Shown here in pieces: positions 23,895 to 59,066 of a stretch of DNA of 64,000 nucleotides. Location: the UHGV virus genome UHGV-0332176; one strand, 5' to 3'. The notes under the pieces were generated by a model. The model was not told the origin of the DNA and did no database searches. It saw only the letters and a list, made by a program, of their open reading frames with translations. The DNA comes from a virus. The translations under genes were made by a program, and so were the position numbers. The first letter of the stretch is position 1. Each line of letters begins with the position of its first letter.

Positions 23895-23904
23895 CCAATT
23901 TTAT

Positions 23905-24377: not shown

Positions 24378-24429
24378 CCATATATTTAATAAATACTTGT
24401 ATAAATAACAAGTTAAGGATTATTAAGTC

Positions 24430-25358: not shown

Positions 25359-25389
25359 CCAATTTATTTTTTAAGAATGGTGAGAAATT

Positions 25390-25483
25390 GATTTACATAG
25401 ACTGGAAATCCGTGTGTAGAAAGTTCGATTCTTTCCCCATCGACCATTTAACGGTGGGTAGCTCATTGGTAGAGCAACGTTAA
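25390..25483 (+). ncRNA. tRNA fragments: a 3' half (T-arm gaaag-ttcgatt-ctttc + cccatcg-a-CCA) followed by a 5' half (ggtgggt-a-gctc-attggta-gagc-a-acgtt)
   Basis: No complete cloverleaf could be folded by eye. The 5'-half motif tagctcat(a)ttggtagagcaacg recurs at 34146..34169. Confidence 0.35.
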
Positions 25484-25531
25484 ATGATAATCAATTGTTA
25501 TGTTCCTTCTTAATTTTTTATAAAAAAGTTC

Positions 25532-25559
25532 TTGACATTAAAAAATTATGTGTTATATT
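25532..25559 (+). promoter_or_regulatory. early-type promoter aaaaaagttcTTGACA-N16-TGtTATATT
   Basis: Read directly; upstream of the 25606 gene. Confidence 0.6.
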
Positions 25560-25605
25560 ACCATTATCAAATGATGATAACATTTTTTAATGAAAGAAAA
25601 ATAAA

Positions 25606-25839
25606 ATGGCAAATACAAATTCAAATTTAGAATTAGGTAAAATTGAAAACAAATGTGGATTTCATATTCATATGGTTCTTTTTGGTGTTAAAAGTGATAT
25701 TATTCGTTATGATATTACTCTTGAAGAAGCTAAAGATTTAATTAATAAAGCTAAAAAAGAATGCGAAAGAGCAGGAATGGAATTCCAATTAATTGAATTT
25801 GAGGAAGTCAAAGTTTCCGTAAAGAAACTTAAATTTTAA
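25606..25839 (+). CDS. small hypothetical protein (77 aa)
   Basis: Follows its own promoter. A hairpin ggaagttaag...cttaacttcc lies downstream. Confidence 0.4.
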   Translation: MANTNSNLELGKIENKCGFHIHMVLFGVKSDIIRYDITLEEAKDLINKAKKECERAGMEFQLIEFEEVKVSVKKLKF

Positions 25840-26432
25840 AAGTTTTGGTAGTTGGAAGTTAAGCTATTAGGGCAGGAGCAACTTAACTTCCATCTATTGA
25901 TACGAATCCTGATTTATTAATTACCTTCACGTGGTTCAGGATGTAAGTAAGAATTGCAGTTTATAACATAAGACAATTTCTGAAACTAAAAATTAATTTT
26001 TAAAATGATTTAATTGAATTATAGTAAATTAAATAAGTTGATTAAATACGTGAGCAATATAGAATCAACAATTGGTATAAAAGCAGATTATAACCGAACT
26101 ACTTAGGCTTACGGTAGACGTAGGGTATAACCACGATTAGGGCAATTTATTTTGAATCTTCATTATGAGTCCTCAACAAATATAATCGTTTTTAAAAAAT
26201 TCTGCATATTTAAATTTTTAAAATTATCTTTATGATGTCTTTCGTTCCTTTCATTGTTGTTACATAAAGATAATTTTGGAGAGATTAATCTCTCCACTTA
26301 TAGAAACATTAAAGATGTCAGTTCGAATCTGACCTGCCTGAATAAAAACTTTTAATATTAAATTGATATTAAAAGTCGGGTGGTAGTAATAACGGTAGAA
26401 TAGTAATGTTGCTATAAATGGAGAATTTTTAT

Positions 26433-26504
26433 GGGTGTATAAGTCAACGGTTAGACTAACAGCCTTTTAAGCTGTAGATGAGGGTTCGATTCCCTCTGCA
26501 CCTA
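26433..26504 (+). tRNA. tRNA-Lys(UUU); CCA encoded
   Basis: Acceptor gggtgta/tgcacct (two G.U pairs); anticodon loop ctTTTaa. Confidence 0.7.
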
Positions 26505-26873
26505 CCAATTTATATTATTGTAGTTAAATACTTTAATGTATCGTCTAATGGCAAGACACCCTCTGTTCGTGTTGAGGGAAATATAGGTTCGAATCCTAAT
26601 AATCATTAAAAATATATAAGAAAAATAACAAGTTTCTTTTTTGATAATTTGGTATTGGAAATTAATGCCCAATTATGACAAGTATTTAACAAAATTTCCT
26701 GACTCTAATCAAAGAATTAGTGATTGATAATTTAATAATTATCTGTGTGCGTGATATGACACCCTTTATCAACGCTTGCATACAAGACTGCATAAATCAA
26801 GATGGGTAGGTGGCTGTTTATCCGTTTCACCTTTCAAATGATAAACAAAACGTTAAAACGGATTGCATTTTAT

Positions 26874-26945
26874 TCTGGTGTAGCTCAATGGTGGAGCAAT
26901 CGGCTGTTAACCGAAAGGTTGTAGGTTCAAGTCCTATCGCCAGAG
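26874..26945 (+). tRNA. tRNA-Asn(GUU), second copy; CCA encoded
   Basis: Acceptor tctggtg/cgccaga; anticodon loop ctGTTaa. Confidence 0.7.
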
Positions 26946-27179
26946 CCAATTATAATAGTAATCATAATATTTAATTTAATAGGATTTTGGTAGCTAGATA
27001 ACCCAAGATATGAAAATTAATATTGATGATATGGTTTAAGATTTTGACCATTAACCGTAATGAAAATCCAGTTTATTTATTGTACTCGGTTAACAATAAC
27101 GTAGAATTGGTAATTCTTAGAAAGGTACGTTAAGCCTTTTATTAAATAAATATCTTATATAATTTATGAGGTATTAAAG

Positions 27180-27602
27180 ATGAGATTAATAGACATATTA
27201 GCATTATTTAAAGCTATTAAAAATACTGCTAAAAAATATCATTGGAAAACAACAGGTTCAACTTTTATGTCAGACCATTTATTATTTGATAGAATTTATG
27301 ATGATATTGATGATGACCAAGTTGATACAATTGTTGAACAATATTATATGGGTGTTGGAAGAAAAGATATTAATGATTTAGATAATTTAATTACATTATC
27401 TGCACAATATGAAGGTAAATCATTTTCTGCAACTTCTGAAAGTATAATTTTAATGTATCAAGAATTAGCAAGAATGATGAATACATTTTTAATTAATATT
27501 GAAAAATTAAATTTATTAAGAGGTATTAATTCTGAATTAGATAATCTTTCTTCAACTATTACACAATTATATGGTTTAGTAACTGCAAGATTATGTCAAT
27601 AA
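27180..27602 (+). CDS. hypothetical protein (140 aa)
   Basis: RBS gaggta; sits between tRNA genes. Confidence 0.45.
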   Translation: MRLIDILALFKAIKNTAKKYHWKTTGSTFMSDHLLFDRIYDDIDDDQVDTIVEQYYMGVGRKDINDLDNLITLSAQYEGKSFSATSESIILMYQELARMMNTFLINIEKLNLLRGINSELDNLSSTITQLYGLVTARLCQ

Positions 27603-27604
27603 TT

Positions 27605-27679
27605 GGGGCTGTGGGCGAATTGGTAGAGCCACCACCCTTTCAAGGTGGATTCTTGCCCGTTCAAGTCGGGTCAGTCCTA
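27605..27679 (+). tRNA. tRNA-Glu(UUC); CCA encoded
   Basis: Acceptor ggggctg/cagtcct; anticodon loop ctTTCaa (same as E. coli tRNA-Glu); T-arm gcccg-ttcaagt-cgggt. Confidence 0.7.
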
Positions 27680-27707
27680 CCATTTTTTATTAAGAAAGAA
27701 ATAAAAA

Positions 27708-28423
27708 ATGTATATATGTAAGAATTGTGGTAAAGAATTTTTAGAAAAATATAGCAAATGGTCAAATGGAGATTTTTGTTGTAAAGAATGTGCTAGAAGT
27801 TATTCAACAAAAAATAAAAGACAAGAAATTAATGAAAAAGTTTCTAAAACATTAAAAGGAAGAATTATTGGAAAAAATTCTTTATTAAAAAATATTAATA
27901 TTAAGCAACAATATGAAAAAGCTCCTTTATTATGTCCAATATGTAACAATATAATTTTATATGAAAGATATATTAAACATAGAAAAACTTGTAGTACAGA
28001 ATGTGGTAAAGAATTAGCAAAAAGAAATCATTCTCATCAAGGTGGTGGTTATAGAAAAAGAGCAGGAAGAAGTAAGCACGGATATTACAAAGGAATTTAT
28101 TGTGATTCAACTTATGAGTTAGCTTATTTAATTTATTGTTTAGACCATAATATTAATATTAAAAGATGTGAAGAAACATTTGAATATGAATATAATGGAA
28201 AAAACATAAATATCATCCTGATTTTATTGTTAATGATGAAATTATAGAGATAAAAGGTTATCATAATAATTTGGTCGATATTAAAATGAAATCTATTATA
28301 AATAGAAAATATAAAATATTATATATTAATGATTTATTTAAATCATTTGAATATGTTAGTAAAGCATATAATAAAAAATTTCATAATAAATGGAATAATT
28401 TTTATGAATTATATGATGAATAA
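27708..28423 (+). CDS. Zn-ribbon + Vsr-like PD-(D/E)xK endonuclease (homing-endonuclease-like), needs a -1 frameshift at slippery heptamer A_AAA_AAC (28199..28205); the 0-frame stops at 28247
   Basis: The 0-frame carries two Zn ribbons (CKNCGKEF..CCKEC; CPICNN..CSTEC). The -1 frame continues as HKYHPDFIVNDEIIEIKGYHNN... (Vsr/DUF559-like PDF...EIKG nuclease motif) to TAA at 28421. Ends 1 nt before tRNA-Asp. Confidence 0.5.
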
Positions 28424-28424
28424 T

Positions 28425-28501
28425 GGTGTGTGGGAGAGCTGGGTGTTCTCGCCTGCCTGTCACGCAGGAGATTCAGAAGGGTTCGAACCCCTTACACACC
28501 G
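28425..28501 (+). tRNA. tRNA-Asp(GUC); CCA encoded
   Basis: Acceptor ggtgtgt/acacacc; anticodon loop ctGTCac. Confidence 0.75.
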
Positions 28502-28709
28502 CCAATTTTTTGAGATATATGCCTAGCAGTTTTCGGTAAAAAATCAAGAAAACAAATGCCTGTATGGTTAAGACATATATCTATCGTCTGTGGAAAATAA
28601 TAGTCCGTAAGGTTCTGTAATACAAGATATTATAGGTTAAATGTTCAGCTATCGAACGGAGAATAGCCAAACCAGCAAATAAGGTGGAAAGCCTTATATT
28701 AATTGTTAT

Positions 28710-28782
28710 GGGTGTGTAGCTTAAATGGTAGAGAAACTGACTCTTAATCAGTATGATGAGGGTTCGAAGCCCTCTGCACCCA
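28710..28782 (+). tRNA. tRNA-Lys(CUU); CCA encoded
   Basis: Acceptor gggtgtg/tgcaccc; anticodon loop ctCTTaa. 3' half closely related to tRNA-Lys(UUU). Confidence 0.6.
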
Positions 28783-28798
28783 CCAAAAAAATAATTAT

Positions 28799-28871
28799 GC
28801 ACCCATAGGCTAATTGGACAAACCCAAAGTCTTCTAAACTTTTATTACAGGTTCGAGTCCTGTTGGGTGTG
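28799..28871 (+). tRNA. tRNA-Arg(UCU); CCA encoded; D-arm irregular
   Basis: Acceptor gcaccca/tgggtgt; anticodon loop ctTCTaa. Confidence 0.55.
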
Positions 28872-29252
28872 CCAGTTATAATTTTATTAAATAATTTGCC
28901 AGCAGGGAAAAGTGAAATGACGCTTCCACCCACTTATTAGGGTTAGATATAGCATCCTTTGCCGTGATGTTTAGTCAGCATCCTTGAAGTTTCATATTGA
29001 GGAAACTTGACATCGTGAAGGAAAGGTTAAACGTCAGACCATAAATAATGGAACAGTTTGTAAAAGAGCCTTTTAAACTGTGGAATAAGTGGCAAATTAT
29101 TTAATAAAATTTTTATGATGAAACGGTGTGGCGGTGTACATATCTGAAAGTAATAGACCTGGTCTTTTAATTTGAAAGTGAAAATTAAACAAAGGTATTA
29201 CCGTTAGAGGAAGTAAGAAGTCAATGGTTCAACTCCATTTTTCATCATTTAT

Positions 29253-29325
29253 GCTCGGTTAGTTCAGCTGGAAGAACATCGCTTTTACACAGCGAGGGTC
29301 GGGAGTTCAAACCTCTCACCGAGTA
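29253..29325 (+). tRNA. tRNA-Val(UAC); CCA encoded
   Basis: Acceptor gctcggt/accgagt; anticodon loop ttTACac. Confidence 0.75.
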
Positions 29326-29330
29326 CCAAT

Positions 29331-29401
29331 TTCGGGGTCGTCTAGTGGTAGGACATTGCACTTTGACTGCAATAACGTTGGTTCGAATCCAGCTCCCGAA
29401 G
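29331..29401 (+). tRNA. tRNA-Gln(UUG); CCA encoded; starts 2 nt after the previous CCA
   Basis: Acceptor ttcgggg/tcccgaa; anticodon loop ctTTGac. Confidence 0.7.
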
Positions 29402-29683
29402 CCAATTTTTAACTTGGGTTTTAACATTTTTATCCCTTTTCCGAAAAAGAAAATGTTAATAGTTGTAATTACAACTCGTTGAGGAATACTATCGTGAAAA
29501 AGTATTGGTTTATTGATTGTTTTTTATATGCTTTGGAACTCCCAGAGACCTGAAATCAATAAGGTATAATAAAGCATCTTAATTTAATAATGGGTAAGAT
29601 TGTAGAATCTCTGATATTAAATTTTAAAGTTTTATTCGTGAATACGGAAACAATGTTAAGTACGTTAATCTTAACAATTTTAT

Positions 29684-29772
29684 GGTGAGTTGGTAGAGTC
29701 AGGTTTAATACAGCAGTTTGCTAAACTGTCGCTTCCGAAAGGTTGCCAGAGGTTCAAATCCTCTACTCACCG
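29684..29772 (+). tRNA. tRNA-Ser(GCU), type II with a long variable arm; CCA encoded
   Basis: Acceptor ggtgagt/actcacc; anticodon loop ttGCTaa; variable arm about 18 nt. Confidence 0.7.
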
Positions 29773-29803
29773 CCATTAAAAATTAAAAAAATAAAAAAAG
29801 TTC

Positions 29804-29832
29804 TTGACAATTAAGAATTTAAAGAATATATT
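29804..29832 (+). promoter_or_regulatory. early-type promoter aaaaaaagttcTTGACA-N17-TATATT
   Basis: Read directly; precedes a structured leader and tRNA-Ile. Confidence 0.55.
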
Positions 29833-29864
29833 CTTTATATAAGGTGCTGATATGCCTTAAATCA

Positions 29865-29985
29865 AAATTATCAGTCCGAGTTTAAAGTTTGGGGTGAGAT
29901 AAACTTTGGTTTAAAGTAATCCAGAAACTTTGGTTTCAATATTTCGCATTAAAATATTGCGTTGGACTGATTATCCCAAAACCAT
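29865..29985 (+). ncRNA. structured leader or small-RNA candidate closed by long-range pairing atcagtccga / ttggactgat and containing two aaactttggttt repeats
   Basis: Read directly; no ORF. Confidence 0.3.
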
Positions 29986-30008
29986 TACGATAAGATGGTT
30001 TATTTAAT

Positions 30009-30082
30009 AGGCTCGTGGTGGAAGTGGTTAACACGTTGCTCTGATAAAGCAAAGATTCCCAGTTCGATTCTGGGCGAGCCTA
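30009..30082 (+). tRNA. tRNA-Ile(GAU); CCA encoded
   Basis: Acceptor aggctcg/cgagcct; anticodon loop ctGATaa. Confidence 0.75.
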
Positions 30083-30119
30083 CCAAATTTAAAATAATTT
30101 ATTTGTGGGAGTATTATAA

Positions 30120-30332
30120 ATGCCAATGGAAAAGAAAGTTTTAACTGATGCAGAAAAAGAATTAAAAAAGAAAGAACACGAATTTAATAAGAAAATTAAT
30201 CAAGTTTGGAAGTTAAGACCATATAAAATTAATGGAATTTCTAAAAATGTTGGTAAAGCTCCAAAATGCAATACAAAAGTTAAAACTGAAAAACCAGTAG
30301 AAATGGTAAATCAGAAAAAGAAAAAGAGATAA
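30120..30332 (+). CDS. small lysine-rich basic protein (70 aa)
   Basis: ORF between tRNA genes. Upstream gggagtattataaatg gives a weak RBS. Confidence 0.35.
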   Translation: MPMEKKVLTDAEKELKKKEHEFNKKINQVWKLRPYKINGISKNVGKAPKCNTKVKTEKPVEMVNQKKKKR

Positions 30333-30340
30333 AAATAAAT

Positions 30341-30413
30341 GCTCCGATAGGCTATGTGGTTAAACCAGGGAGCTTATATCTCTCAATGCACGGTTCGAGT
30401 CCGTGTCGGAGTA
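30341..30413 (+). tRNA. tRNA with anticodon UAU (Ile, AUA-decoding); CCA encoded
   Basis: Acceptor gctccga/tcggagt; anticodon stem gggag/ctctc with loop ctTATat; T-arm cacgg-ttcgagt-ccgtg. Confidence 0.55.
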
Positions 30414-30422
30414 CCATATTTT

Positions 30423-30495
30423 TCTCCGATAGCTAAACGGTTAAAGCTGTCCGCTCATAACGGAAAGATTGGGGGTTCGATTCCCTCTCGGAGAA
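30423..30495 (+). tRNA. tRNA(CAU), elongator Met or Ile2-lysidine type; CCA encoded
   Basis: Acceptor tctccga/tcggaga perfect; anticodon loop ctCATaa; three G-C pairs at 29-31/39-41. Confidence 0.65.
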
Positions 30496-30808
30496 CCATT
30501 TTTATAAAAGTTTTGGTTCAGACAATACGCACAAGGTGAAGATAGCACAACGGTGATGAACCATTGATATAAAAAGAATGATTTAGCGGTCATAAACTAT
30601 TATATTATAAAAGTGTCTGATGACTTTAGTTCTTTTCAATAAGGAAAAGAGTTGCAACAACCATTAATTTAAATGTTTGCTAACAAGTTCATTTAAATTA
30701 AGTATGGTAATAATGTTAGAGGAAAAATTTATTGATTTGACTATGTTAAAATCAATCGGTGAATTTTAATAATTCTCATAAATCATCTGTTAAGTGATTA
30801 TTATATAT

Positions 30809-30880
30809 AGCGGGATAGAGCAGGGGTAGCTCACTTGGCTCATAACCAAGAGGTCGGGTGTTCGAGTCACTCTCCCGCAA
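30809..30880 (+). tRNA. initiator-like tRNA-fMet(CAU): 1:72 A.A mismatch, A11:U24, 3' end CCCGCAACCA as in E. coli tRNA-fMet
   Basis: Anticodon arm cttgg-ctCATaa-ccaag; D-stem gagc/gctc with A11-T24; T-arm gggtg-ttcgagt-cactc. Confidence 0.6.
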
Positions 30881-30993
30881 CCATTTAATAGGTAGGTACG
30901 AAGATAGCTCAAATACCTCGTAAAACTAAATAGTCGTGCTATCCGCAAACTTTTGTAGAGTAAATGGCGATATAAGTAACTCTACATTTTAAT

Positions 30994-31066
30994 GGCAGAT
31001 TAGTGAAATGGTTTATCACGGCTGACTCATATTCAGCAATTACAAGTTCAATTCTTGTATCTGCTA
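30994..31066 (+). tRNA. tRNA(CAU), third CAU-anticodon tRNA (Met or Ile2); CCA encoded
   Basis: Acceptor ggcagat/atctgct; anticodon loop ctCATat; T-loop ttcaatt. Confidence 0.6.
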
Positions 31067-31094
31067 CCAATAATTTTTTTGTGGGAAATAATCA

Positions 31095-32249
31095 ATGACA
31101 AATTATATTGTAAATAATAATAATGTTAGAATATTTGGTGATGAAGAAGTTAATATTCAACCAAATTTGCCATTAGGTACATATTTAGTAAAAGAAAATC
31201 CTATGTCTGGTGAATTATATTTAGAAAAAACAGTCAATTTTACAAAGCCAACAAAAATTTATGGAGATTGTGAATTTCAATCTGAAAGAATTATTACAAC
31301 ATTTAAAGATAGACCAAAGAATACAGGTGTATTATTAAATGGTGCAAAAGGGTCAGGAAAAACATTTTTAGCAAAATATATTTCTTATAAGTTGTTAAAT
31401 GAAAATTATTCAACAATTGTTATTAATGAAATTTTTAATCCAACAAAATTGTCATTATTATTACAAACAATTTCTGAACCTTGTGTAATTATTTTTGATG
31501 AATTTGAAAAAATTTATCAACCAAGTAAAAATGATAATAATAATCCTCAAAATGGTTTATTATCATTATTAGATGGTTTATTTCAAACAAAAAAATTATT
31601 TATTTTTACTTGTAATGATGATAATAATATTTCTGATTTAATGAAAAATAGACCAGGTCGTGTTTATTATAAATTAGAATTTAAAGGTATTAACGATAAA
31701 GCTATTGAAGAATACTGTGAAGAAAAATTAATTAATAAAAAATATCTTTCACAAATTTTTAGTATCAAAAAAATGATTAAAGATTTTACATTTGATATTC
31801 TTCAAACAATCGTAGAAGAAGTTAACAGATATAATGAAACTCCATTGGATGCTGTTAAAATGTTAAATGTTACTCCACAATCATTATATACAAGATATAG
31901 TATTTCTGTTAAACCTTTACAAGGTCAAAAAATTATTAATTATGAAAAAACAATATGGATGAATCCTTTATCTTCAGATGAAGAATCAGTTTGGATTAAA
32001 CGTTATGGAACTGAATTAAATATTGATGATGAAGATAGTAAACGAAAAATTATTAGTGATATAGCAATAAATGATGATGACGATGATGAAGAAGATAATG
32101 ATGAAAAAACAACTGATTATGTCATTATTTCATTAGAAACATTAATATCCACAAATAAAAATACCTATGTTTATAATAGTGGTGGTTATCAAATTATTTT
32201 AACAAAAAAAGAAATTGATACAACTGATATGTGGAGATATGCTGTTTAA
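31095..32249 (+). CDS. AAA+ ATPase (classic clade)
   Basis: Walker A GAKGSGKT, Walker B IIFDEFE, sensor-2-like NRPGRVYYKLEF. Acidic C-terminal tail. Confidence 0.6.
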   Translation: MTNYIVNNNNVRIFGDEEVNIQPNLPLGTYLVKENPMSGELYLEKTVNFTKPTKIYGDCEFQSERIITTFKDRPKNTGVLLNGAKGSGKTFLAKYISYKLLNENYSTIVINEIFNPTKLSLLLQTISEPCVIIFDEFEKIYQPSKNDNNNPQNGLLSLLDGLFQTKKLFIFTCNDDNNISDLMKNRPGRVYYKLEFKGINDKAIEEYCEEKLINKKYLSQIFSIKKMIKDFTFDILQTIVEEVNRYNETPLDAVKMLNVTPQSLYTRYSISVKPLQGQKIINYEKTIWMNPLSSDEESVWIKRYGTELNIDDEDSKRKIISDIAINDDDDDEEDNDEKTTDYVIISLETLISTNKNTYVYNSGGYQIILTKKEIDTTDMWRYAV

Positions 32250-32268
32250 TTATTTTGTAAAAAAATAC

Positions 32269-32297
32269 TTGACATATAAAAATTATTATGTTATATA
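32269..32297 (+). promoter_or_regulatory. early-type promoter aaaaaatacTTGACA-N17-TGtTATATA
   Basis: Followed by about 750 nt with no ORF. Confidence 0.55.
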
Positions 32298-32299
32298 TA

Positions 32300-32830
32300 A
32301 TATTGTTCCTAATGATGAATTAGGTTAGATGAAAAATCTGTAAAAATTGTGTTTATTTTTAATAATTCAGAAAGGAGTTATATATCAGAATCATTCAATA
32401 ATTGGTATTATTAACCAATAGGAAGCCTTTTTAAGGCAATGAGAGTAACCAATCTTTCTTTTGATATATTATAATTTGTTGTTACTTGAATAATGGGTCG
32501 CCAGCCCATAAAAGTATACAGATGATAAACTGAAAAGTTTTGAAGGTAGTTGTGAGTAATATGAGCATAAGGTTGAAATAGCCACAGTTGGATAACTGTG
32601 AGTGACGTAAGAACCAGACAAATCGTGGTTGAAGAATCTGATGGCTGTATCTGGTTGGGAGTAATCAATCTCCCCATCTATTAAGCAAAGGAGTAATTAA
32701 CCTTTGTGGATGTGACTGAATAATGTGTGAATATGAGGGGCTTGTCGGTAGTCAGGAGTCCGACCAACAAATTATAACAGTTTGTGGCAGTCGTTCTGTT
32801 AAAAACTCTGCCTTTTTATTTAAATTGATA
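32300..32830 (+). ncRNA. promoter-proximal ORF-free region, candidate large structured RNA
   Basis: No + strand ORF longer than 40 codons. GC-richer islands (gggtcgccagccc, gaggggcttgtcggtagtcaggagtccgacc) in an AT-rich background. Confidence 0.25.
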
Positions 32831-32851
32831 GTAAGAAAAAGATTTACATAG
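32827..32851 (+). repeat. unit-start repeat, copy 6 (gatagtaagaaaaaGATTTACATAG)
   Basis: Family consensus TTGnnAATAGTGAG-N5-7-AGATTTACATAG. Other copies: 32912..32942, 33878..33902, 33975..33999, 34066..34090, 34218..34243. Confidence 0.7.
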
Positions 32852-32932
32852 ATTAATTTTTGGTATTAATAACAACAAATTTTTTTCAGGGTTCTTCAAT
32901 TTAAATAAAAATTGCGAATAGTGAGTTATTAG

Positions 32933-33006
32933 ATTTACATAGCTAAATTGGTTAAAGCATCAAATTGTTAATTTGAGTATTGTAGGTTCAATTCCTACTG
33001 TAAACA
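32933..33006 (+). ncRNA. tRNA-shaped RNA (Y-RNA-like unit 1): acceptor atttaca/tgtaaac with A1.C72 mismatch, anticodon-loop ttGTTaa, canonical T-arm gtagg-ttcaatt-cctac, no encoded CCA
   Basis: Immediately follows repeat copy 1. Every bona fide tRNA in the island encodes CCA; this one does not. Confidence 0.45.
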
Positions 33007-33041
33007 CAATCTAATAGAATGTTCTTTCGCTTTTTATTATT

Positions 33042-33070
33042 TTGACATTTTTAATTAAATGTTTTATAAA
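33042..33070 (+). promoter_or_regulatory. promoter TTGACA-N17-TATAAA about 10 nt upstream of tRNA-Ser(UGA)
   Basis: Read directly. Confidence 0.5.
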
Positions 33071-33079
33071 TAAATTTAT

Positions 33080-33162
33080 GGAAGGCAACTGGCTGGATGA
33101 AGACACCGACTTGAAATCGGCTGGGCAGAGATGCTTTGGGGGTTCGAGTCCCTCGCCTTCCG
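33080..33162 (+). tRNA. tRNA-Ser(UGA), type II with a long variable arm; CCA encoded
   Basis: Acceptor ggaaggc/gccttcc perfect; anticodon loop ctTGAaa; T-arm ggggg-ttcgagt-ccctc. Confidence 0.65.
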
Positions 33163-33182
33163 CCATTTTTTTGAGAAAAAAT

Positions 33183-33569
33183 ATGAAATGTTTAAATTGT
33201 GGTAAAGAAATATTTGATAAAAAACATAAAAATAGAAAATATTGTTGTAATAAATGTCAAAAAGAATTTGAATGGAAACAAACAAAACAATTAATTGAAA
33301 TTTATAATACATATCAATTAAAAAATTATAATGAATATACTGCAAGAAGGACAGCTAAAAAATATTTAATTGAAAAATATGGAAATAAATGTAGTATTTG
33401 TGGAACGACTCATTGGTTAGGAAAACCAATTTTATTAATTGCTGACCATATAGATGGAGATGCCACAAATAATTCAATAAATAATATTAGACTTATTTGT
33501 TCTAATTGTGATGCTACATTAGATACATATAAAGCTAAAAATAAAAGTACAAGAACAAGTCGTAAGTAG
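33183..33569 (+). CDS. HNH homing-endonuclease-like protein with N-terminal Zn ribbon (start at MKCLNCGKE; the track's upstream extension overlaps tRNA-Ser)
   Basis: HNH motif ADHIDGDATNNSINNIRLICSNCD. Zn ribbon CLNCGKEI...CCNKC is shared with 24430 and 27708. Confidence 0.6.
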   Translation: MKCLNCGKEIFDKKHKNRKYCCNKCQKEFEWKQTKQLIEIYNTYQLKNYNEYTARRTAKKYLIEKYGNKCSICGTTHWLGKPILLIADHIDGDATNNSINNIRLICSNCDATLDTYKAKNKSTRTSRK

Positions 33570-33574
33570 TTTTT

Positions 33575-33646
33575 GCCTTCGTGGCTCAATGGTACAGCAG
33601 TCGATTTGTAATCGACCATTTCCTCGTTCAAGTCGGGGCGAAGGCA
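33575..33646 (+). tRNA. tRNA-Thr(UGU); CCA encoded
   Basis: Acceptor gccttcg/cgaaggc perfect; anticodon loop ttTGTaa. Confidence 0.75.
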
Positions 33647-33667
33647 CCAATTTTTAAGAGCTGACAA

Positions 33668-33719
33668 GCTGTTCCGCTTCTTATATTAAATAATATATAG
33701 CTTCTCGAACAGCGTTTTA
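33668..33719 (+). terminator. terminator-like hairpin after tRNA-Thr (gctgttc...gaacagc + gtttt)
   Basis: Read directly; large loop. Confidence 0.35.
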
Positions 33720-33877
33720 ATAAACTCTCCCGCTAAAGATACTTTGTGTATACAGCGAATATGGATAAACGTTAAATCGTTTTAATAACTATAATATAAC
33801 ACGTGTGAAAAAGTTATTATGAGTAAAGAGTTTTCATCAATCTCTATAAACAAAATTGATGAAATTATTTAAATGGT

Positions 33878-34205
33878 AATAGTGAGAAATAGATTTACAT
33901 AGATACTAACATTCAAACTGTTACAATATTAAAGAATCTATTAATATGTTCTTTACCAATTAAATAATTTTGACAATAGTGATATAAAGAATTACATAGA
34001 TAACTGATTATTATCTGCCAGAAAATATTTCTTTATTATTATTCTTTGTCATATAAAAAATTAGCAATAGTGAGAGAAAGATTTACATAGGCTTGTAACC
34101 CGTAGGTAATTGGTTCGAATCCAATCAGATGAATGAAAATTCATTTGTAGCTCATATTGGTAGAGCAACGAAAAAAAGAATCTTTCAATATGTTCTTTGC
34201 TTAAT
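33878..34205 (+). repeat. tandem degenerate Y-RNA-like units 2 to 4, each repeat followed by tRNA-arm-like pieces (T-arm attgg-ttcgaat-ccaat at 34109..34125; D-arm/5'-half atttgtagctcatattggtagagcaacg at 34141..34169)
   Basis: Repeat copies at 33878, 33975 and 34066. Each unit ends near (a)tatgttcttt: 33019, 33946, 34190. Confidence 0.5.
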
Positions 34206-34234
34206 AAATTTTTTGGTGATAGTGATTAATTAGG

Positions 34235-34306
34235 TTTACATAGTGAAATGGTTAACACATTTGTCTTGAAAACAAAGAAATGCAGGTTCGAGTCCTGCTG
34301 TAAATA
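34235..34306 (+). ncRNA. tRNA-shaped RNA (Y-RNA-like unit 5): acceptor gtttaca/tgtaaat, type-I body with Ser-type anticodon loop ctTGAaa, T-arm gcagg-ttcgagt-cctgc, no encoded CCA
   Basis: Immediately follows repeat copy 5. The acceptor helix is nearly identical to unit 1 despite a different anticodon. Terminator follows. Confidence 0.45.
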
Positions 34307-34341
34307 ACACCTAATTTTTTGTTCTTCACCTAACATTTTGC

Positions 34342-34373
34342 AACCCAAGAACATATGTTCTTGGGTTTTTTTA
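34342..34373 (+). terminator. rho-independent terminator (aacccaagaacat/atgttcttgggtt + T7)
   Basis: Read directly. Confidence 0.6.
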
Positions 34374-34385
34374 TTAAATAAATTC

Positions 34386-34414
34386 TTGACATATTTTATT
34401 TAATATGTTATAAA
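34386..34414 (+). promoter_or_regulatory. promoter aaattcTTGACA-N17-TGtTATAAA for the TROVE gene
   Basis: Read directly. Confidence 0.55.
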
Positions 34415-34454
34415 CAGGAATGTAAATTAACCTTAACTTATGGAGTGTTGAAAA

Positions 34455-35744
34455 ATGAAAACAAATAAAGCAATTAAAAAAGACCCAGTATATACTTATG
34501 AAGGTGGTAAAGCATCTCATATTTCTGAATTAGAAGAACTTAAAAGAGCAACAATGTCTTGTTTGCTTTGGGAAGATAATTTCTATGAAGATGGAGTATC
34601 TATTGCAGATAGAATTACCTCATTAGTTAAGGCTTGTATAGATAAAGGTCATTATGATGATGTTATTGATATTTTAAAGAAAGTTAAATTTGATATGAAA
34701 ATTCGTCATTGTCCTTTATGGATGATTGTTGCAATTTATAAAGCTGGTAAAACAATTTCTAAAGATGTTATTGCATCTATCTTAACAAGACCTGATGATA
34801 TGGGTGAATTGCTATCTTTATATAGAAAAGATAATGAAAAATCTCCTATTCCAAATGCTATTAAGAAAGGTATGGCTATTGCATTACAAAAATTTGATGA
34901 ATATCAATTAGCAAAATGGAATCGTAATGCAAATTATAAATTAGTTGATATTGTTAATATTTGCCATCCAAAGGTAACTGAAGCTATTGATAAATTAGTT
35001 AAAGGTACTTTAGAAACTCCTAAAACTTGGGAAGTTTTACTTTCAGCAGCAGGTTCAGATAAAGAAAAGAAAAAAGATGCTTGGAATGAATTAATTGAAT
35101 CTAATAAATTACCAGATATGGCTTTATTAAAGAATATTCGTGGTATGCTAGAAAGCGGTGTATCAAAAACTGTTATTGTTGATAGAATTAATATGATTAA
35201 AAGTGGTCGTTTACTACCAATTGATTATATTAGAGCTGCAGAAAATAATCCATCTTTAGAAAATGAAATTGAAAAGAAATTTCTAAATTGCTTTGAAAAA
35301 CCATCATTATACGGTAAAACTGCAATTCTTGTAGATGTTTCAGGTTCAATGGATGGTGAACGCTTAAAATATGCAAATGCATTGGCAATGATTGGACGTG
35401 AAATGTGCTCAGAAGTTGATATATATTCATTCTCTGATTATGTTAAATTTGTACCAAATCGTAGAGGTTTTGCATTAGCAGAAGCTATTGATAAATCTCA
35501 AACTCATTGGGGAACTAATATGTGGGATGCTATTACTGAAGTTGAAAAAGGACGTTATGATAGAATTATTGTTGTAACTGATGAACAAACTATGGGTAGT
35601 CCTCATAATGCTAAAATTAAAAATGCATATATGATTAATGTGGCATCTTATTCAAAAGGTGTTGGATATAACAATGGTTATAAACACATTAATGGTTTTT
35701 CAGATAAAGTATTCAATTACATTTCTGAAATTGAAAATGTATAA
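34455..35744 (+). CDS. Ro60/Rsr-like TROVE-domain protein (helical N-terminal region + C-terminal vWA with MIDAS DxSxS)
   Basis: TAILVDVSGSMDG MIDAS motif about 130 aa from the C-terminus, downstream of an alpha-helical repeat region, matching the Ro60 (TROVE) architecture. Adjacent to the tRNA-mimic array. Confidence 0.55.
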   Translation: MKTNKAIKKDPVYTYEGGKASHISELEELKRATMSCLLWEDNFYEDGVSIADRITSLVKACIDKGHYDDVIDILKKVKFDMKIRHCPLWMIVAIYKAGKTISKDVIASILTRPDDMGELLSLYRKDNEKSPIPNAIKKGMAIALQKFDEYQLAKWNRNANYKLVDIVNICHPKVTEAIDKLVKGTLETPKTWEVLLSAAGSDKEKKKDAWNELIESNKLPDMALLKNIRGMLESGVSKTVIVDRINMIKSGRLLPIDYIRAAENNPSLENEIEKKFLNCFEKPSLYGKTAILVDVSGSMDGERLKYANALAMIGREMCSEVDIYSFSDYVKFVPNRRGFALAEAIDKSQTHWGTNMWDAITEVEKGRYDRIIVVTDEQTMGSPHNAKIKNAYMINVASYSKGVGYNNGYKHINGFSDKVFNYISEIENV

Positions 35745-35759
35745 ATATTATTAACAAAC

Positions 35760-36068
35760 CCGATAGGCTTCTTATTTAATTGAGTAGTATGGGTATATTA
35801 GATGACTTAATGCTCACTCCCCTCTGCTACTCTTTAAATTAAATATAGCACAATTATCTTTCTGGAATTGACCAGATAAGTTTATTAAAATTCCTAGGTT
35901 AAATTAATAAATGGGTAGATTTATAAAATTATCCTAAACACGCTCTGATACTTTAATAGTATTAACGCTTATTATATGAGATTACATATAACAATTATAA
36001 TTTCAGCTGTTCAGTTATAATTGGGATATTGGATTTAATCAATTTAACAAGAGAGATTAATTTCTTTC
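35760..36068 (+). ncRNA. ORF-free region downstream of the TROVE gene, candidate additional Y-RNA-like RNA
   Basis: No ORF. Terminal complementarity gagtag...ctactc (35784/35829). Hairpin aacaagagaga...tctttcttgtt at 36046-36074. Confidence 0.25.
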
Positions 36069-36320
36069 TTGTTAAATTATTTTTGTATAAAAGGAAATAA
36101 AATGTTAAATTTAAAAAGTATTTTAAATGATAATATGAGAGTAAAATTTGATTTTTATCGTGATGGTGCTTTATGGTATTCAACAATGAATGGATTTCAA
36201 TTTCCTGTTTCCGTAAAAACATTAGCTGGTACAACAATTTTAAAAGCTAATGATAAAGCATCAGCATTTAGTTATTATATTAAAAAATATTATAATGAAT
36301 TAAATAAAGATAAGGAATAA
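36069..36320 (+). CDS. hypothetical protein (83 aa)
   Basis: RBS aaaaggaaataaaatg. Confidence 0.4.
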   Translation: MLNYFCIKGNKMLNLKSILNDNMRVKFDFYRDGALWYSTMNGFQFPVSVKTLAGTTILKANDKASAFSYYIKKYYNELNKDKE

Positions 36321-36325
36321 TTTAG

Positions 36326-36742
36326 ATGAGATTACAATTTTATGTTCAAACAAAAGAAATATCAAAAAATAATCAATTATATGGTGTTATGACAATGATT
36401 GATGATAAGCCATTTGATTATTTGATTGGTAATATGGAAGGTGATAAAGAATATGTTATTGATAAAGTATCTAAAAATATTTTAATTAAAAATAAAACTG
36501 TTTTAAAAAATAATTATTATTCTTTTAAATATGATAATTTAGATATAACGAAAAAAATGTTATATAAATTTCATACTGAAGATTTTTATAAACAGTATTC
36601 AAAAGAACAACAAACATCATTAGATGCATTACCAGCTATTTTTCTTTCTGATTTGACTAAATTATCTAACTTAACAAAACGAATGAATAATTACGAACAA
36701 TTATTACAAAATAAATTTTATAATTCAAAAAATCGCATTTAA
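36326..36742 (+). CDS. hypothetical protein (138 aa)
   Basis: RBS aaggaataatttagatg. Confidence 0.4.
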   Translation: MRLQFYVQTKEISKNNQLYGVMTMIDDKPFDYLIGNMEGDKEYVIDKVSKNILIKNKTVLKNNYYSFKYDNLDITKKMLYKFHTEDFYKQYSKEQQTSLDALPAIFLSDLTKLSNLTKRMNNYEQLLQNKFYNSKNRI

Positions 36743-36765
36743 TGCGATTTTTTTGTTGACAAGTA

Positions 36766-36793
36766 TTTTTATTATGTTATATTAATATCATCT
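36766..36793 (+). promoter_or_regulatory. promoter TTGACA-N16-TGtTATATT (preceded by terminator aaatcgcatt/aatgcgattt at 36728..36756)
   Basis: Read directly. Confidence 0.55.
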
Positions 36794-36889
36794 TAAATGT
36801 TTTGGAGAAAAATAATGGTATATCTTTTCATTTTTTGTATTTTATATTTTATTATTTTTAATGATTCAATTAATTAATGGAGAAAAAAT

Positions 36890-37129
36890 ATGAAATGGTA
36901 CACACAAGCAGATATGCCTTATGGTAAAGAACCGATTGTTGTAAAAACTGTTGATAAACAAATTTATTTAGGAAATCATCAACATATTCATAATTCTAAT
37001 CTTAAACATACTTTTAAGAATGAAGAACAATGGGTATTAACAACTAATCAACAAAAAATTGAATGGTCAAAAATTAAAGAATGGCATTATGTTCGAAAAA
37101 TTGTTGATGTAATTGAAAGGAAATTTTAA
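36890..37129 (+). CDS. hypothetical protein (79 aa)
   Basis: RBS atggagaaaaaatatg. Confidence 0.4.
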   Translation: MKWYTQADMPYGKEPIVVKTVDKQIYLGNHQHIHNSNLKHTFKNEEQWVLTTNQQKIEWSKIKEWHYVRKIVDVIERKF

Positions 37130-37399
37130 ATGAAAAATTATTTGATAATGGTTTATAATTTTAGTCAATGGATGTGGGTTTATGATTTCCAAAATAAAAA
37201 ATGGAATAAATTTAATTGGGGTAATAATATTTCTCCTAAGCAATTTCTTGAAATTGCTGAAAAATATAATATGTTTTATTTTTCAGCTAAAGATGTAGAA
37301 GAATCATATTCTAAATTTGATAAAGATGAAATAGAATTTATGGGTTTTGATGACCCAAACTGGAAAGAAAAAGTGAGGATTATAAGTTATGTTGGCTAA
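37130..37399 (+). CDS. hypothetical protein (89 aa)
   Basis: Start overlaps the previous stop (TAAATG). Confidence 0.4.
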   Translation: MKNYLIMVYNFSQWMWVYDFQNKKWNKFNWGNNISPKQFLEIAEKYNMFYFSAKDVEESYSKFDKDEIEFMGFDDPNWKEKVRIISYVG

Positions 37400-37733
37400 A
37401 AAGAAAAATATTTTTAAAAAGATATTGTATTTTATTATAATCGTTGGTACTCTTATTTTAGGATTATCTATTAGTGATGCAAATGCTAAATATGTTATTG
37501 CTTCTCAATATTCTTTTGATACAGACACATTTGCACAAATTTTAGAGATATGTGAAATGAAAGGTTGTCAACTTAAAGGTAATTTGGTTTATAATTCTTA
37601 TGGAAAATATTTACAAGTATTAATGGATTGTCCATACATATTTGATTATGAATATATAACAGAAAAAATGTTTGAATATTGGTCACACGATATAGAAATT
37701 AAATTGCCACAAGATATATCTAAATTTCTATAA
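37389..37733 (+). CDS. hypothetical protein with an N-terminal TM helix (114 aa)
   Basis: Overlapping start; hydrophobic N-terminus. Confidence 0.4.
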   Translation: MLAKKKNIFKKILYFIIIVGTLILGLSISDANAKYVIASQYSFDTDTFAQILEICEMKGCQLKGNLVYNSYGKYLQVLMDCPYIFDYEYITEKMFEYWSHDIEIKLPQDISKFL

Positions 37734-37747
37734 ATATGAATACGAAT

Positions 37748-37833
37748 GGTGGATGTAGTCAAGTTGGTCGAAGACGTTAGATTGTGGCTCTAATACATAA
37801 GAAACATCGTGGGTTCAAATCCCACCATTCACC
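37748..37833 (+). tRNA. tRNA-His(GUG)-like with G-1:C73, an atypical 15-nt variable region, and no clean CCA
   Basis: G-1 + gtggatg / cattcac + C73; anticodon arm ttaga-ttGTGgc-tctaa; T-arm gtggg-ttcaaat-cccac; 15 nt between the anticodon and T-stems; 3' end reads CAC. Confidence 0.35.
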
Positions 37834-37925
37834 CACCTCAATAATGCAATAACCTTTACGAGGTTTGAGGTATAAGTAATTCAATAGTTGGATGAAACTA
37901 ATAATTGCAAAATATTGAAAAATTT

Positions 37926-37999
37926 GGCTCGTTAGGCGAATTGGCATAGCCGTCTGTCTTAGGTACAGAAGTTTGGGGGTTCGAGTCCCTCACGAGCTA
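37926..37999 (+). tRNA. type-I (short variable arm) tRNA with Leu anticodon UAG and Leu-like D-arm; CCA encoded
   Basis: Acceptor ggctcgt/acgagct; D region ggcgaattggcatagcc resembles bacterial tRNA-Leu; anticodon loop ctTAGgt; variable loop only 5 nt. Confidence 0.5.
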
Positions 38000-38006
38000 C
38001 CAATAT

Positions 38007-38080
38007 GGGCAGATGACGGAATTGGTATACGTGCTACACTCAAAATGTAGATTTTGTGAGTTCAAATCTCACTCTGCCTA
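38007..38080 (+). tRNA. type-I tRNA with Leu anticodon CAA; CCA encoded
   Basis: Acceptor gggcaga/tctgcct; anticodon arm ctaca-ctCAAaa-tgtag; 5-nt variable loop; T-arm gtgag-ttcaaat-ctcac. Confidence 0.5.
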
Positions 38081-38244
38081 CCAAGATAAATTAAAATTGT
38101 GGGGAAAAATGAGAACAGTTTATGAATATATAAAAGAATTTATTCTTCAAATTTGTTGGCTTTTTAAATAATTTTGTGGAGAAATAATATGTGCAAAGAG
38201 GAAAATGACATCAAGTAAGTTAATAACTTATAGGAGATGTCAAA

Positions 38245-40778: not shown

Positions 40779-40948
40779 TGACAAAATATAAATGTATATA
40801 TGGTTTTACAGAAAAAATAATTGAAGCATCTGATGAAGATGAAGCCAGAGATGAATTTGCATATAATTTTATTGAAAATGAAGATGAAATAAATGATTTT
40901 TTATTACAAGATATAAAATTTTGTACAAAAGTTGAGGAATGCGAATAA
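40778..40948 (+). CDS. small acidic protein (56 aa), not in the ORF track
   Basis: ATG overlaps the previous stop (TAATG); ends TAA at 40946. Confidence 0.3.
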   Translation: MTKYKCIYGFTEKIIEASDEDEARDEFAYNFIENEDEINDFLLQDIKFCTKVEECE

Positions 40949-41424
40949 TGTATAAATGGGAAATGAATATTATTAATGATTTTAATAATGAAAAATATAA
41001 ATGGTTATCTAATTTTTATCCTTCAAAATTTATTGCTAATGGTAAGGAATTTTGTAGTGTTGAACAATATTACCAATATGAAAAAGCAATAGAATTTAAT
41101 GATTTTGAAACTGCTGATAAAATTCTTAATACTTCTTCACCAGGTAAAGCTAAATCATTAGGTCGAGATGTTAAAAATTTTGATGATTTAGTATGGAATA
41201 AGTATAAAATTAATATAATGAAAGATGGATTATATGCTAAATTTACACAAAATTCTGAATTATATAATTTATTATTATCAACAGGTTCTTCTATAATAAT
41301 TGAAGGTAATCTATGGCAAGATACTTTTTGGGGTGTTGTAAATGGTGAAGGGCAGAATAATTTAGGATTACTATTAATGTTATTGAGAAATGAATTAAGA
41401 ATGTTAAAGGAAAATGAATGTTAA
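40948..41424 (+). CDS. NADAR-domain (YbiA-like) protein, candidate ADP-ribose/N-glycoside hydrolase (track start 40939; ATG 40948 preferred)
   Basis: Motifs SNFYPS..F, EQYYQYEKA, GKAKSLGRDV, KFTQN..L...LL.TG...IIEG...D.FWGVV..G.G.N.LG..LM..R match the NADAR consensus. Confidence 0.55.
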   Translation: MYKWEMNIINDFNNEKYKWLSNFYPSKFIANGKEFCSVEQYYQYEKAIEFNDFETADKILNTSSPGKAKSLGRDVKNFDDLVWNKYKINIMKDGLYAKFTQNSELYNLLLSTGSSIIIEGNLWQDTFWGVVNGEGQNNLGLLLMLLRNELRMLKENEC

Positions 41425-43045: not shown

Positions 43046-43278
43046 TGAATTACTTAAATATTAAAATGCCTTATCCAATGCCAGATGATTATAATATAGA
43101 ATTGGAAATTGGTGATTATATTGTTAAAGATAAAAATGGTGAATTCTTTATTGATAGTTGGGTAGATAATATAATGGGATTTTATTGTTGGGAATTGGAT
43201 GCCTTATCAGAAATCGTATGTAAATTACCTTCTTGTGAAGAATTACTTAAAATTTTGGAGAAAGAATATGCAGAATAA
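43045..43278 (+). CDS. hypothetical protein (77 aa)
   Basis: ATG overlaps the previous stop. Confidence 0.4.
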   Translation: MNYLNIKMPYPMPDDYNIELEIGDYIVKDKNGEFFIDSWVDNIMGFYCWELDALSEIVCKLPSCEELLKILEKEYAE

Positions 43279-43717
43279 AATTTTAGATGAATATAAAAAA
43301 GCTGTCAAAGAAAATGATTTTTGGAGAAAGAAAGTTTTAACTACTTTACGCTCTGAAATTAAAAATATGGAAATTATGCTTCGTCCAAAAAATTTAACAC
43401 CAACTGATGCAGATATTCTTTGTGTTATTCAAAAAATTATTAAACAAGATAAAGAAGCACTTGGTATGTTTATTGAAAGTGGACGACAAGATTTGATTGA
43501 TGCAACTAATACTGAAATTACAATTCTTGAAGAATTTTTACCAACACAATTAACAAATGATGAAATTGATAATATCATCAAACAAGAAATTGAAAATAAT
43601 AGCTATTCATCAATGAAAGATATGGGCAAATTGATGGGATATTTTAAGAATAATTATTCTGGTCAATGTGATATGGGATATGTATCTAAGAAAATTAAGG
43701 AGATGTTAAATGGATAA
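43268..43717 (+). CDS. GatB/YqeY-domain protein (track 43199 start trimmed to ATG 43268, MQNKILDEY)
   Basis: YqeY-like pattern ...LR.EI...E.....PTDADIL.VIQKIIKQ..EA...F.E.GR.DLIDA...EI.ILEEFLP.QL...EI...... Confidence 0.45.
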   Translation: MQNKILDEYKKAVKENDFWRKKVLTTLRSEIKNMEIMLRPKNLTPTDADILCVIQKIIKQDKEALGMFIESGRQDLIDATNTEITILEEFLPTQLTNDEIDNIIKQEIENNSYSSMKDMGKLMGYFKNNYSGQCDMGYVSKKIKEMLNG

Positions 43718-59062: not shown

Positions 59063-59066
59063 TATT

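Follow-up and report, generated by a model that had tools for sequence, protein, structure and literature searches.

Probable leucine tRNAs without a long variable arm, and a tRNA-His with an enlarged loop, at the end of a viral tRNA array

What are tRNAs that bear leucine anticodons but lack the long variable arm, standing next to a tRNA-His with an oversized loop, doing in a virus genome? The question arises at the 3' end of a tRNA array in the virus genome UHGV-0332176, taken to be that of a large phage from gut-type metagenomes, of which we analysed a stretch of 64,000 nucleotides (nt), AT-rich with a G+C content of ~25% and hereafter called the window. The last three genes of this array, tRNA-His(GUG), tRNA-Leu(UAG) and tRNA-Leu(CAA), had been described in a sequence-only reading as atypical tRNAs that might be Leu isoacceptors lacking the long arm, or else molecules of another identity or function, such as mischarged tRNAs, decoys or tRNA mimics. 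Taken together, the evidence makes it very probable that the trio comprises three working tRNA genes, namely two arm-less Leu acceptors and a tRNA-His with an enlarged loop. The array and the three genes are as follows:

23383-38083, plus strand: tRNA array, 26 tRNA or tRNA-like genes on one strand (ARAGORN, Rfam)
37748-37836, plus strand: tRNA-His(GUG), with encoded G-1, C73, an 8-base-pair (bp) acceptor helix and the trailer CAC (ARAGORN, Rfam, sequence)
37926-38002, plus strand: type-I tRNA-Leu(UAG), 74 nt plus CCA, 5-nt variable loop, A73, G37 (ARAGORN, Rfam, fold)
38007-38083, plus strand: type-I tRNA-Leu(CAA), 74 nt plus CCA, 5-nt variable loop, A73, A36-A37-A38 (ARAGORN, Rfam, fold)

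ARAGORN and Rfam agree on three tRNA genes where the sequence-only reading had placed them. ARAGORN calls tRNA-His(gtg) at 37749-37834, tRNA-Leu(tag) at 37926-38002 and tRNA-Leu(caa) at 38007-38083, and Rfam RF00005 scores them at 58.5 (His), 56.7 (UAG) and 62.2 bits (CAA) against a gathering score of 29, with E-values of 1e-9 to 5e-11 over the whole window; these scores are typical of the other tRNAs in the array. The next best RNA families in the Rfam scan reach 17-30 bits, far under their own thresholds, and no alternative fold scores better. The minimum free energy (MFE) fold is a cloverleaf for both Leu tRNAs, bearing out their description as 74-nt type-I molecules with CCA and the anticodons UAG and CAA; that of tRNA-His keeps the 8-bp acceptor helix and the T arm and leaves a 15-nt insertion unpaired. 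The folding-energy z-scores of the trio are weak (-1.1 to -1.8), and the case for real genes therefore rests on covariance-model scores and on the relatives described below, not on folding energy. No promoter or terminator signals above chance were found around the trio.

The variable loops of the Leu pair measure 5 nt each, AGUUU in Leu(UAG) and AUUUU in Leu(CAA), short of the more than 10 nt that define a class II variable region. The anticodon loops are CUUAGGU (UAG, G37) and CUCAAAA (CAA, A37), and the D arms are GGCG-AAUUGGCAU-AGCC in Leu(UAG) and ACGG-AAUUGGUAU-ACGU in Leu(CAA); the Leu-like D arm that had been noticed at 37926 is thus a property of both tRNAs. The leucyl-tRNA synthetase (LeuRS) of Escherichia coli ignores the anticodon and the long arm and needs A73, A14, A15:U48, G18G19 and A20a, and tRNA-Leu variants of that species stripped of the variable arm stay active with it; archaeal LeuRS requires the long arm (PMC9976931). 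The E. coli-type set is complete in both Leu genes, and their D stems are built in the class II manner, with 3 bp and a non-Watson-Crick 13:22. A G1:U72 wobble tops the acceptor stem in both, and 3:70 is C:G in one and G:C in the other, neither being the G3:U70 that marks substrates of the alanyl enzyme (AlaRS). Since A73 and the elements of the D/T-loop corner are all kept, the host LeuRS would be expected to charge both tRNAs with leucine.

The pair is not alone in this design. A BLAST search of the 400-nt region against cultured phages returned tRNA-Leu genes in T5-like Proteus phages and in Mycobacterium, Vibrio, Aeromonas, Xanthomonas and Streptomyces phages. These genes are 74-77 nt long and, when aligned with those of the window, need no gap in the variable region. 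A pattern that called for a D loop of the Leu type, a YAR anticodon and a T loop at type-I distance matched at least 120 places in IMG/VR viral contigs and at least 120 in bacterial and archaeal genomes; among the genome matches listed, 93 of 120 lie in clusters of at least three tRNAs within 8 kb, i.e., in tRNA arrays. Discriminator counts of the genome-contig matches are unreliable for genes without CCA and were not used. The pattern imposed neither A73 nor A15:U48. Among the matches listed, all of 99 unique 74-nt family members have A73 and U48, and in a pair table of 101 sequences (the viral-contig family among the matches listed, plus the window pair) both A73 and A15:U48 stand at 100%. 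The D stem in these 101 sequences has 3 bp and a non-Watson-Crick 13:22 (G.A in 82); pairing in the stems is 98-100% canonical, and each position shows 3-6 pair types.

The bodies of these molecules are Leu-like even when the anticodon is masked. By their ten nearest neighbours, 165/165 type-I Leu tRNAs are classed as Leu, and type-I Leu tRNAs account for 29/40 nearest neighbours of the window UAG gene and 39/40 of the CAA gene, with the best non-Leu neighbour scoring far lower for both. The family body bears all six Leu anticodons (UAG, CAG, GAG, AAG, UAA and CAA) and only those, and these six belong to two separate codon boxes that are linked only by leucine. Among unselected type-II Leu tRNAs, 57% carry the D-loop motif AAYWGGYA, as against 0-17% in other isotypes.

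The frequency of the short form was estimated from an unselected sample, in which viral loci were picked through an unrelated Asn tRNA. Type I made up 5/33 Leu tRNAs in this sample, in 3/25 loci, and type II the remaining 28/33. The premise that phage tRNA-Leu is normally of type II therefore holds for the majority, but 74-77-nt forms are common; likewise, the short arm of the pair is real, but the pair is less atypical than had been announced, because such tRNA-Leu genes are already annotated in many GenBank phages. Given this sample and the at least 120 matches in each scan, short-arm Leu is a common minority form in phages, and a sizeable minority of phage Leu tRNAs thus lacks an arm that textbooks hold to be universal outside animal mitochondria. 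We found no dedicated study of short-arm phage tRNA-Leu in the literature; Behra et al. (2019) remark in passing on a short-variable-loop tRNA-Leu(TAG) in a horizontally acquired Mycobacterium tRNA cluster (PMC6582537), and the form is mentioned neither in a tRNA-array survey nor in a paper on phage tRNAs and nucleases (PMC10264068). On these comparisons, the likeliest view is that the window pair consists of ordinary, functional members of a widespread, little-discussed class of arm-less phage leucine tRNAs.

Other long-armed tRNAs tell a different story. Within the window array, Tyr (87 nt) and Ser-GCU (92 nt) retain their long variable arms. In the Asn-anchored sample all Ser tRNAs measure at least 81 nt, and 19/20 Tyr tRNAs at least 79 nt (1/20 is short); in viral loci selected through Leu, short Ser tRNAs number 1/102. 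As the latter sample is biased towards the short form, its counts of short versus long Leu tRNAs can be read only as a comparison of anticodons with one another: 96 vs 7 for UAG, 45 vs 5 for CAA and 39 vs 41 for UAA; the commonest set is a long UAA with a short UAG and/or CAA. Leucine tRNAs may have been free to drop an arm that they can do without, whereas Ser and Tyr kept theirs because their synthetases use it, and the Ser/Tyr-long, Leu-short pattern of phage arrays is what the needs of the synthetases would predict. Arm loss seen in Leu only, with the elements read by LeuRS kept, can be regarded as a natural experiment confirming the in vitro identity rules.

The same three genes recur in related viruses. 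A Megablast search with 20 kb of the window gave no close relative among cultured phages, and relatives were identified instead through homologues of a TROVE protein encoded in the window:

34455-35744, plus strand: TROVE (Ro60/Rsr-like) protein (Pfam E 1.9e-15)

The related contigs reach up to 387 kb, and several are of gut and animal metagenomes; L-numbers (L251, L254 and so on) are our labels for sampled viral contigs. His-Leu(UAG)-Leu(CAA) adjoins the TROVE gene in L251 (95% TROVE identity), L254 (73%) and L256/L257 (62%), lying downstream of it in the window, L251 and L254 and upstream in L256/L257, while L258 and L259 (86-87%) carry His and Leu(UAG) only. The Leu orthologues show compensatory changes in the acceptor, anticodon and T stems, with A73 and CCA in all. 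In the window and L251 the variable regions of these genes are 5 nt long, compared with 6 nt in the UAG gene of L254 and 11 nt in the CAA gene of L256/L257; that of a tRNA-Leu(UAG) in the huge phage LR756500 measures 13 nt, and L257 carries a full 87-nt Leu(UAA). This 5/6/11/13-nt series suggests a stepwise erosion of an ancestral arm, by which the Leu pair would have descended from a long-armed tRNA-Leu. The LR756500 gene (L003, 4583-4665, 83 nt) contains in its 13-nt variable region the motif GCUUAAUUGC, which also occurs within an 83-nt tRNA-Asn of L023, and the same phage has an 85-nt tRNA-Glu(UUC) with an enlarged variable region (L003, 3109-3193).

During infection the pair would decode its codons as leucine, the UAG tRNA reading CUN and the CAA tRNA UUG. 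In the window TROVE protein, compared with 61 distant homologues, the columns of the 8 CTN codons have a mean Leu fraction of 0.70 and those of the 3 TTG codons 0.58, which equals the value for TTA (0.58); the background is 0.10. The identity elements, the family, the synteny and these codon columns all favour the first of the two options that had been offered, Leu isoacceptors without the long arm. For annotation, both genes should be called tRNA-Leu despite the absent arm, and should not be taken as a sign of recoding.

tRNA-His poses a question of its own, which concerns its variable region and the spacer that follows the gene:

37794-37808, plus strand: tRNA-His variable region, 15 nt, UACAUAAGAAACAUC, predicted unpaired (sequence, Rfam alignment, fold)
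37837-37925, plus strand: His-Leu(UAG) spacer, 89 nt, two predicted hairpins (z = -2.57 for the fold of 37835-37925)

The sequence matches the earlier description of this gene. G-1 at 37748 lies opposite C73 at 37833 and the anticodon GUG occupies 37784-37786, these features being the determinants for the histidyl enzyme (HisRS); the trailer at 37834-37836 is CAC, not CCA. The insertion sits between the anticodon stem and the T stem, the Rfam alignment places it in the variable region, and its 15 nt compare with a class I norm of 4-5 nt. His orthologues occupy the same position in L251, L258, L259, L254 and L256/L257, and a homologue is present in LR756500. G-1, C73 and GUG are invariant in 7/7 related His sequences, and compensatory changes are found at 3:70, 5:68, 6:67, 11:24, 27:43 and 51:63.

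The insertion is not unique to the window and recurs in four relatives, reading ACAU[A/U]AGAAACAUC in the window, L251, L258, L259 and LR756500; the orthologues of L254 and L256/L257 have ordinary short loops. Its near-identity suggests constraint but is not statistically compelling, as just three or four independent lineages are involved. Among the His tRNAs of the sampled viral loci, a long variable region occurs in 1/78. A single sub-lineage of this phage group would have expanded the loop from ~5 nt to 15 nt and retained it since. Two further ideas about the insertion were rejected: a hairpin within it (UCUA/UAGA), predicted for LR756500, has its pairing broken in the window and L251, and further copies of the insertion were sought in a scan of viral contigs, where the sole match is a chance one, with no tRNA there.

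At the 3' end, the insertion-bearing His genes of L251, L258 and L259 end in an encoded CCA and abut Leu(UAG), whereas the window and L254 have ACCCACCUC instead, followed by the conserved hairpin-rich spacer. As CCA is encoded in the sister contigs, its absence in the window is a local variant, and the window tRNA would acquire CCA by 3' trimming and a CCA-adding enzyme. Over 63 nt the spacer matches the sequence 3' of tRNA-His in L254 (the 73% relative) at 90% identity, and it is cleanly absent from L251, L258 and L259; it may represent a small RNA or serve in processing or termination. Relatives encode CCA-adding-type/PolyA_pol nucleotidyltransferases and Thg1-like proteins (tRNA-His guanylyltransferase family), the CCA-adding-type nucleotidyltransferase being located in L256/L257. 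The Thg1-like/nucleotidyltransferase genes of the relatives are:

L253, 20119-20931, minus strand
L254, 17563-18378
L256/L257, 1-645

In Pfam scans of ~40 window open reading frames (ORFs), no aminoacyl-tRNA synthetase, CCA-adding enzyme or Thg1 was found; the only RNA- or tRNA-related domains were YqeY, NADAR and TROVE.

Several observations weigh against reading the trio as three working tRNAs. The identity set compared above is of the E. coli type, and the LeuRS of the host may differ. The codon columns comprise 11 codons of one protein. Leu codons in the window are TTA 83%, CTT 8%, TTG 6% and CTA 2%, so that cognate codons are rare and simple codon supply is a weak rationale for the Leu pair; in addition, no tRNA-Leu(UAA) is called within the window. 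The MFE fold of tRNA-His is not a clean cloverleaf, and its insertion was lost or never gained in two related lineages and is thus not essential. The sequences themselves show the gene calls, structure, covariation, family membership, synteny and the Leu meaning of the codons; that the genes are expressed and their products charged by LeuRS or HisRS, and whatever the His insertion may do, we infer.

Could the unusual shapes reflect something other than working leucine and histidine tRNAs? One possibility is that the short-arm tRNAs are charged with another amino acid, leading to mistranslation or to recoding of CUN or UUG. Recognition by LeuRS is deduced here in molecules that miss the usual class II hallmark and have the G1:U72 wobble, and a body that disagrees with its anticodon does occur in the window, in a Glu-UUC tRNA with a Leu-like body. 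However, the lack of G3:U70 makes AlaRS unlikely and the lack of a long arm the seryl enzyme (SerRS), and the remaining synthetases read anticodons that the pair does not carry (identity rules in PMC9976931). The restriction of the family to the six Leu anticodons, its invariant A73 and A15:U48, and the fall of window CTN and TTG codons at conserved Leu positions also speak for leucine, and we regard charging with another amino acid as the least credible of the explanations considered. Hardly more credible is the idea of decaying gene copies, in which arm deletion and loop insertion would be mere damage. The window His gene without encoded CCA, the relatives without the insertion and the rarity of cognate codons would fit decay, but all stems are intact, orthologues whose neighbouring proteins share 62-95% identity differ by compensatory changes, pairing in the family is 98-100% canonical with many pair types, and the Rfam scores resemble those of the rest of the array.

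Decoys or mimics deserve a closer look, since the window encodes a TROVE/Ro60 protein and at least two mimic-looking tRNA-like elements (at 32933 and 34234, described below), and phage tRNAs are known to act against tRNA-targeting defences (PMC10264068, PMC11555353). The trio could then be sponges for host nucleases, or Y RNA tRNA-like modules for a phage Ro60-like protein. Unlike the 32933 and 34234 elements, however, the trio has Leu and His anticodons that are constant across relatives. CCA is encoded in both Leu genes and in the His gene of three relatives, G+C content is normal in all three genes, and the extended or conserved flanking helix of Y RNA/YrlA mimics is absent from the trio. 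Position 37 suits the codon class, being G37 after G36 in the UAG tRNA and part of A36-A37-A38 in the CAA tRNA. Nuclease resistance and decoding are, moreover, compatible rather than exclusive. A decoy or mimic role is therefore quite improbable, and none of the other identities or functions once proposed finds support for these three genes.

A different proposal accepts that the tRNAs work and holds that arm loss is adaptive and not a neutral streamlining, with the Leu tRNA still charged by any bacterial LeuRS while it escapes host factors that grip the long arm; we consider this unlikely, if less so than the alternatives above. Candidate arm-users to be evaded would be MenT3-like toxins, class-II-directed nucleases resembling eukaryotic Schlafens, and mis-recognition by SerRS. 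MenT3 anchors on the long loop of tRNA-Ser, and human Schlafens favour class II tRNAs. Bacterial Schlafens were considered as class-II-specific nucleases and set aside, since one that has been characterised cuts Lys, Met and Ala tRNAs and others. Under the adaptive proposal, the bias towards short UAG and CAA and mostly long UAA would mirror the host isoacceptors under attack, in line with phage tRNAs that counter or evade tRNA-targeting defences (PMC10264068, PMC11555353). The 15-nt His loop would likewise protect its tRNA from a nuclease of the host or give some phage factor a grip; Thg1-like and Ro60-like proteins are encoded in relatives.

The neighbourhood of the trio holds further elements of interest. 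The window elements at 32933-33007 and 34234-34306 are AT-rich, CCA-less paralogues with conserved flanks, as expected of mimics, and have counterparts in three relatives:

L251, 8851-8924 and 9778-9850
L258, 7823-7898 and 9218-9290
L259, 8497-8572 and 9214-9286

Their 'anticodons' vary among close relatives (GUU vs UGA for one; UGA vs AAC vs AAU for the other) and their stems change compensatorily; the variation of the 'anticodons' disfavours a decoding role. The second element, a 73-nt 'tRNA-Ser(UGA)', is not Ser-like and lies inside a long helix formed by its flanks; it is probably not a Ser tRNA with a short arm but a tRNA mimic of the Y RNA type. Just upstream of the TROVE gene, 34101-34172 gives a sub-threshold Rfam YrlA match (36.6 bits vs a gathering score of 69, E 6e-6).

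The 'tRNA-Glu(UUC)' at 27605-27682 has a Leu-type D arm, GGCG-AAUUGGUAG-AGCC, with U48 and A73-CCA, and with its anticodon masked its neighbours are Leu in 32/40 cases and Glu in 1/40. Its D-loop motif occurs in 1/124 Glu tRNAs of the sampled loci, and together with A73-CCA in none; L251 has a Glu(UUC) call at the equivalent site. Judging by these features, its body and anticodon may be discordant. A tRNA at 25286-25358 that was missed by ARAGORN and found by Rfam only (47.5 bits) reads as tRNA-Cys(GCA) with U73 and CCA. Among the protein-coding genes, an AAA/STAND-type NTPase ORF lies within the tRNA array (31095-32249), a YqeY/GatB-like protein and a NADAR domain protein are found among the ORFs 43199-43717 and 40939-41424, respectively, and a run of ORFs at 57289-62954 has radical-SAM or 4Fe-4S matches, four of them under the Pfam gathering score and one above the PF13353 cut-off.

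If the short-arm phage Leu tRNAs work as we propose, they would offer ready-made compact tRNAs for genetic-code engineering. A tRNA-Leu of phage OSYSP has reportedly been employed in such work, by Nyerges et al. in 2023; it may or may not be the short-arm tRNA of that phage. Later papers give the OSYSP tRNA only as GenBank MF402939, without a sequence, and OSYSP probably carries a long-armed Leu of the T5 type as well.

How does the trio compare with known systems? For tRNA-His, the nearest likenesses are an 88-nt tRNA-His of L086 and a recurrent tRNA-Ile(UAU) of 87-96 nt, which also have 10-20 extra nt in the variable region. The insertions of these molecules form a stem-loop, whereas the 15 nt of the window His lack conserved pairing and are unrelated in sequence. 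The long tRNA-Ile(UAU) has a long variable arm with the conserved motif CCAGAUUAGCG / CUAGAUAAGG, A73 and CCA; it makes up 16/73 'Ile' tRNAs in the Leu-selected loci and 3/24 in the Asn-anchored sample, and as a class-II-shaped tRNA with an Ile anticodon it recalls the nematode nev-tRNAs. Examples are:

L016, 4203-4294, minus strand
L017, 264-354
L025, 4722-4815
L059, 2356-2447
L062, 5458-5550, minus strand
L102, 1032-1123

The closest known counterparts of the Leu pair are the 74-77-nt tRNA-Leu genes of cultured phages, including Proteus phage 1 (MT679223, with adjacent UAA and UAG genes), Escherichia phage OSYSP (UAA), Mycobacterium phage Zetzy (CAG), Vibrio phage 1.208.B, Aeromonas phage BUCT695, Xanthomonas phage X1 and Streptomyces phage Sycamore. 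These share with the window genes the 74-nt layout, a 5-nt loop ending in U48, A73, the D loop AAUUGGYA and mostly CCA, and they often form tandem pairs, as in the window. Gap-free alignments link the window CAA gene with those of the Proteus, Vibrio and Aeromonas phages and the window UAG gene with those of Zetzy and Sycamore. Unlike the window, however, they belong to other phage families and hosts, and their identity to the window genes is only 72-82%. The UAG members of the family mostly carry A37 (44/52 in the viral set), in place of the G37 that is expected for CUN readers and that the window tRNA has; this excess of A37 may be linked to anticodon-loop changes that have been proposed to evade nucleases. 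The tRNA-Leu(UAG) of T5 is a canonical class II molecule of 85 nt, to which many T5 relatives, including OSYSP, add a 74-nt Leu(UAA).

Compared with canonical class II tRNA-Leu, the window pair shares the Leu anticodons, A73, A14, A15:U48, G18G19, A20a, the D-loop motif and a D stem of 3 bp in which 13:22 is unpaired, and differs in having a 5-nt loop in place of the long variable stem-loop. The tRNA-Leu(TAG) of the Mycobacterium cluster (PMC6582537) represents the same phenomenon in a cluster thought to be phage-derived, although in another organism and without further analysis. We found no report in the papers examined of experimental leucylation of a short-arm phage tRNA-Leu. A mechanistic precedent for charging of the pair is provided by arm-less E. 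coli constructs and animal mitochondrial tRNA-Leu, which LeuRS recognises by A73, A14 and the tertiary core and continues to leucylate (PMC9976931). These precedents differ from the window pair in that they are laboratory constructs, or organellar tRNAs served by a LeuRS of their own, whereas the pair is natural and viral and would be charged by the enzyme of a bacterial host.

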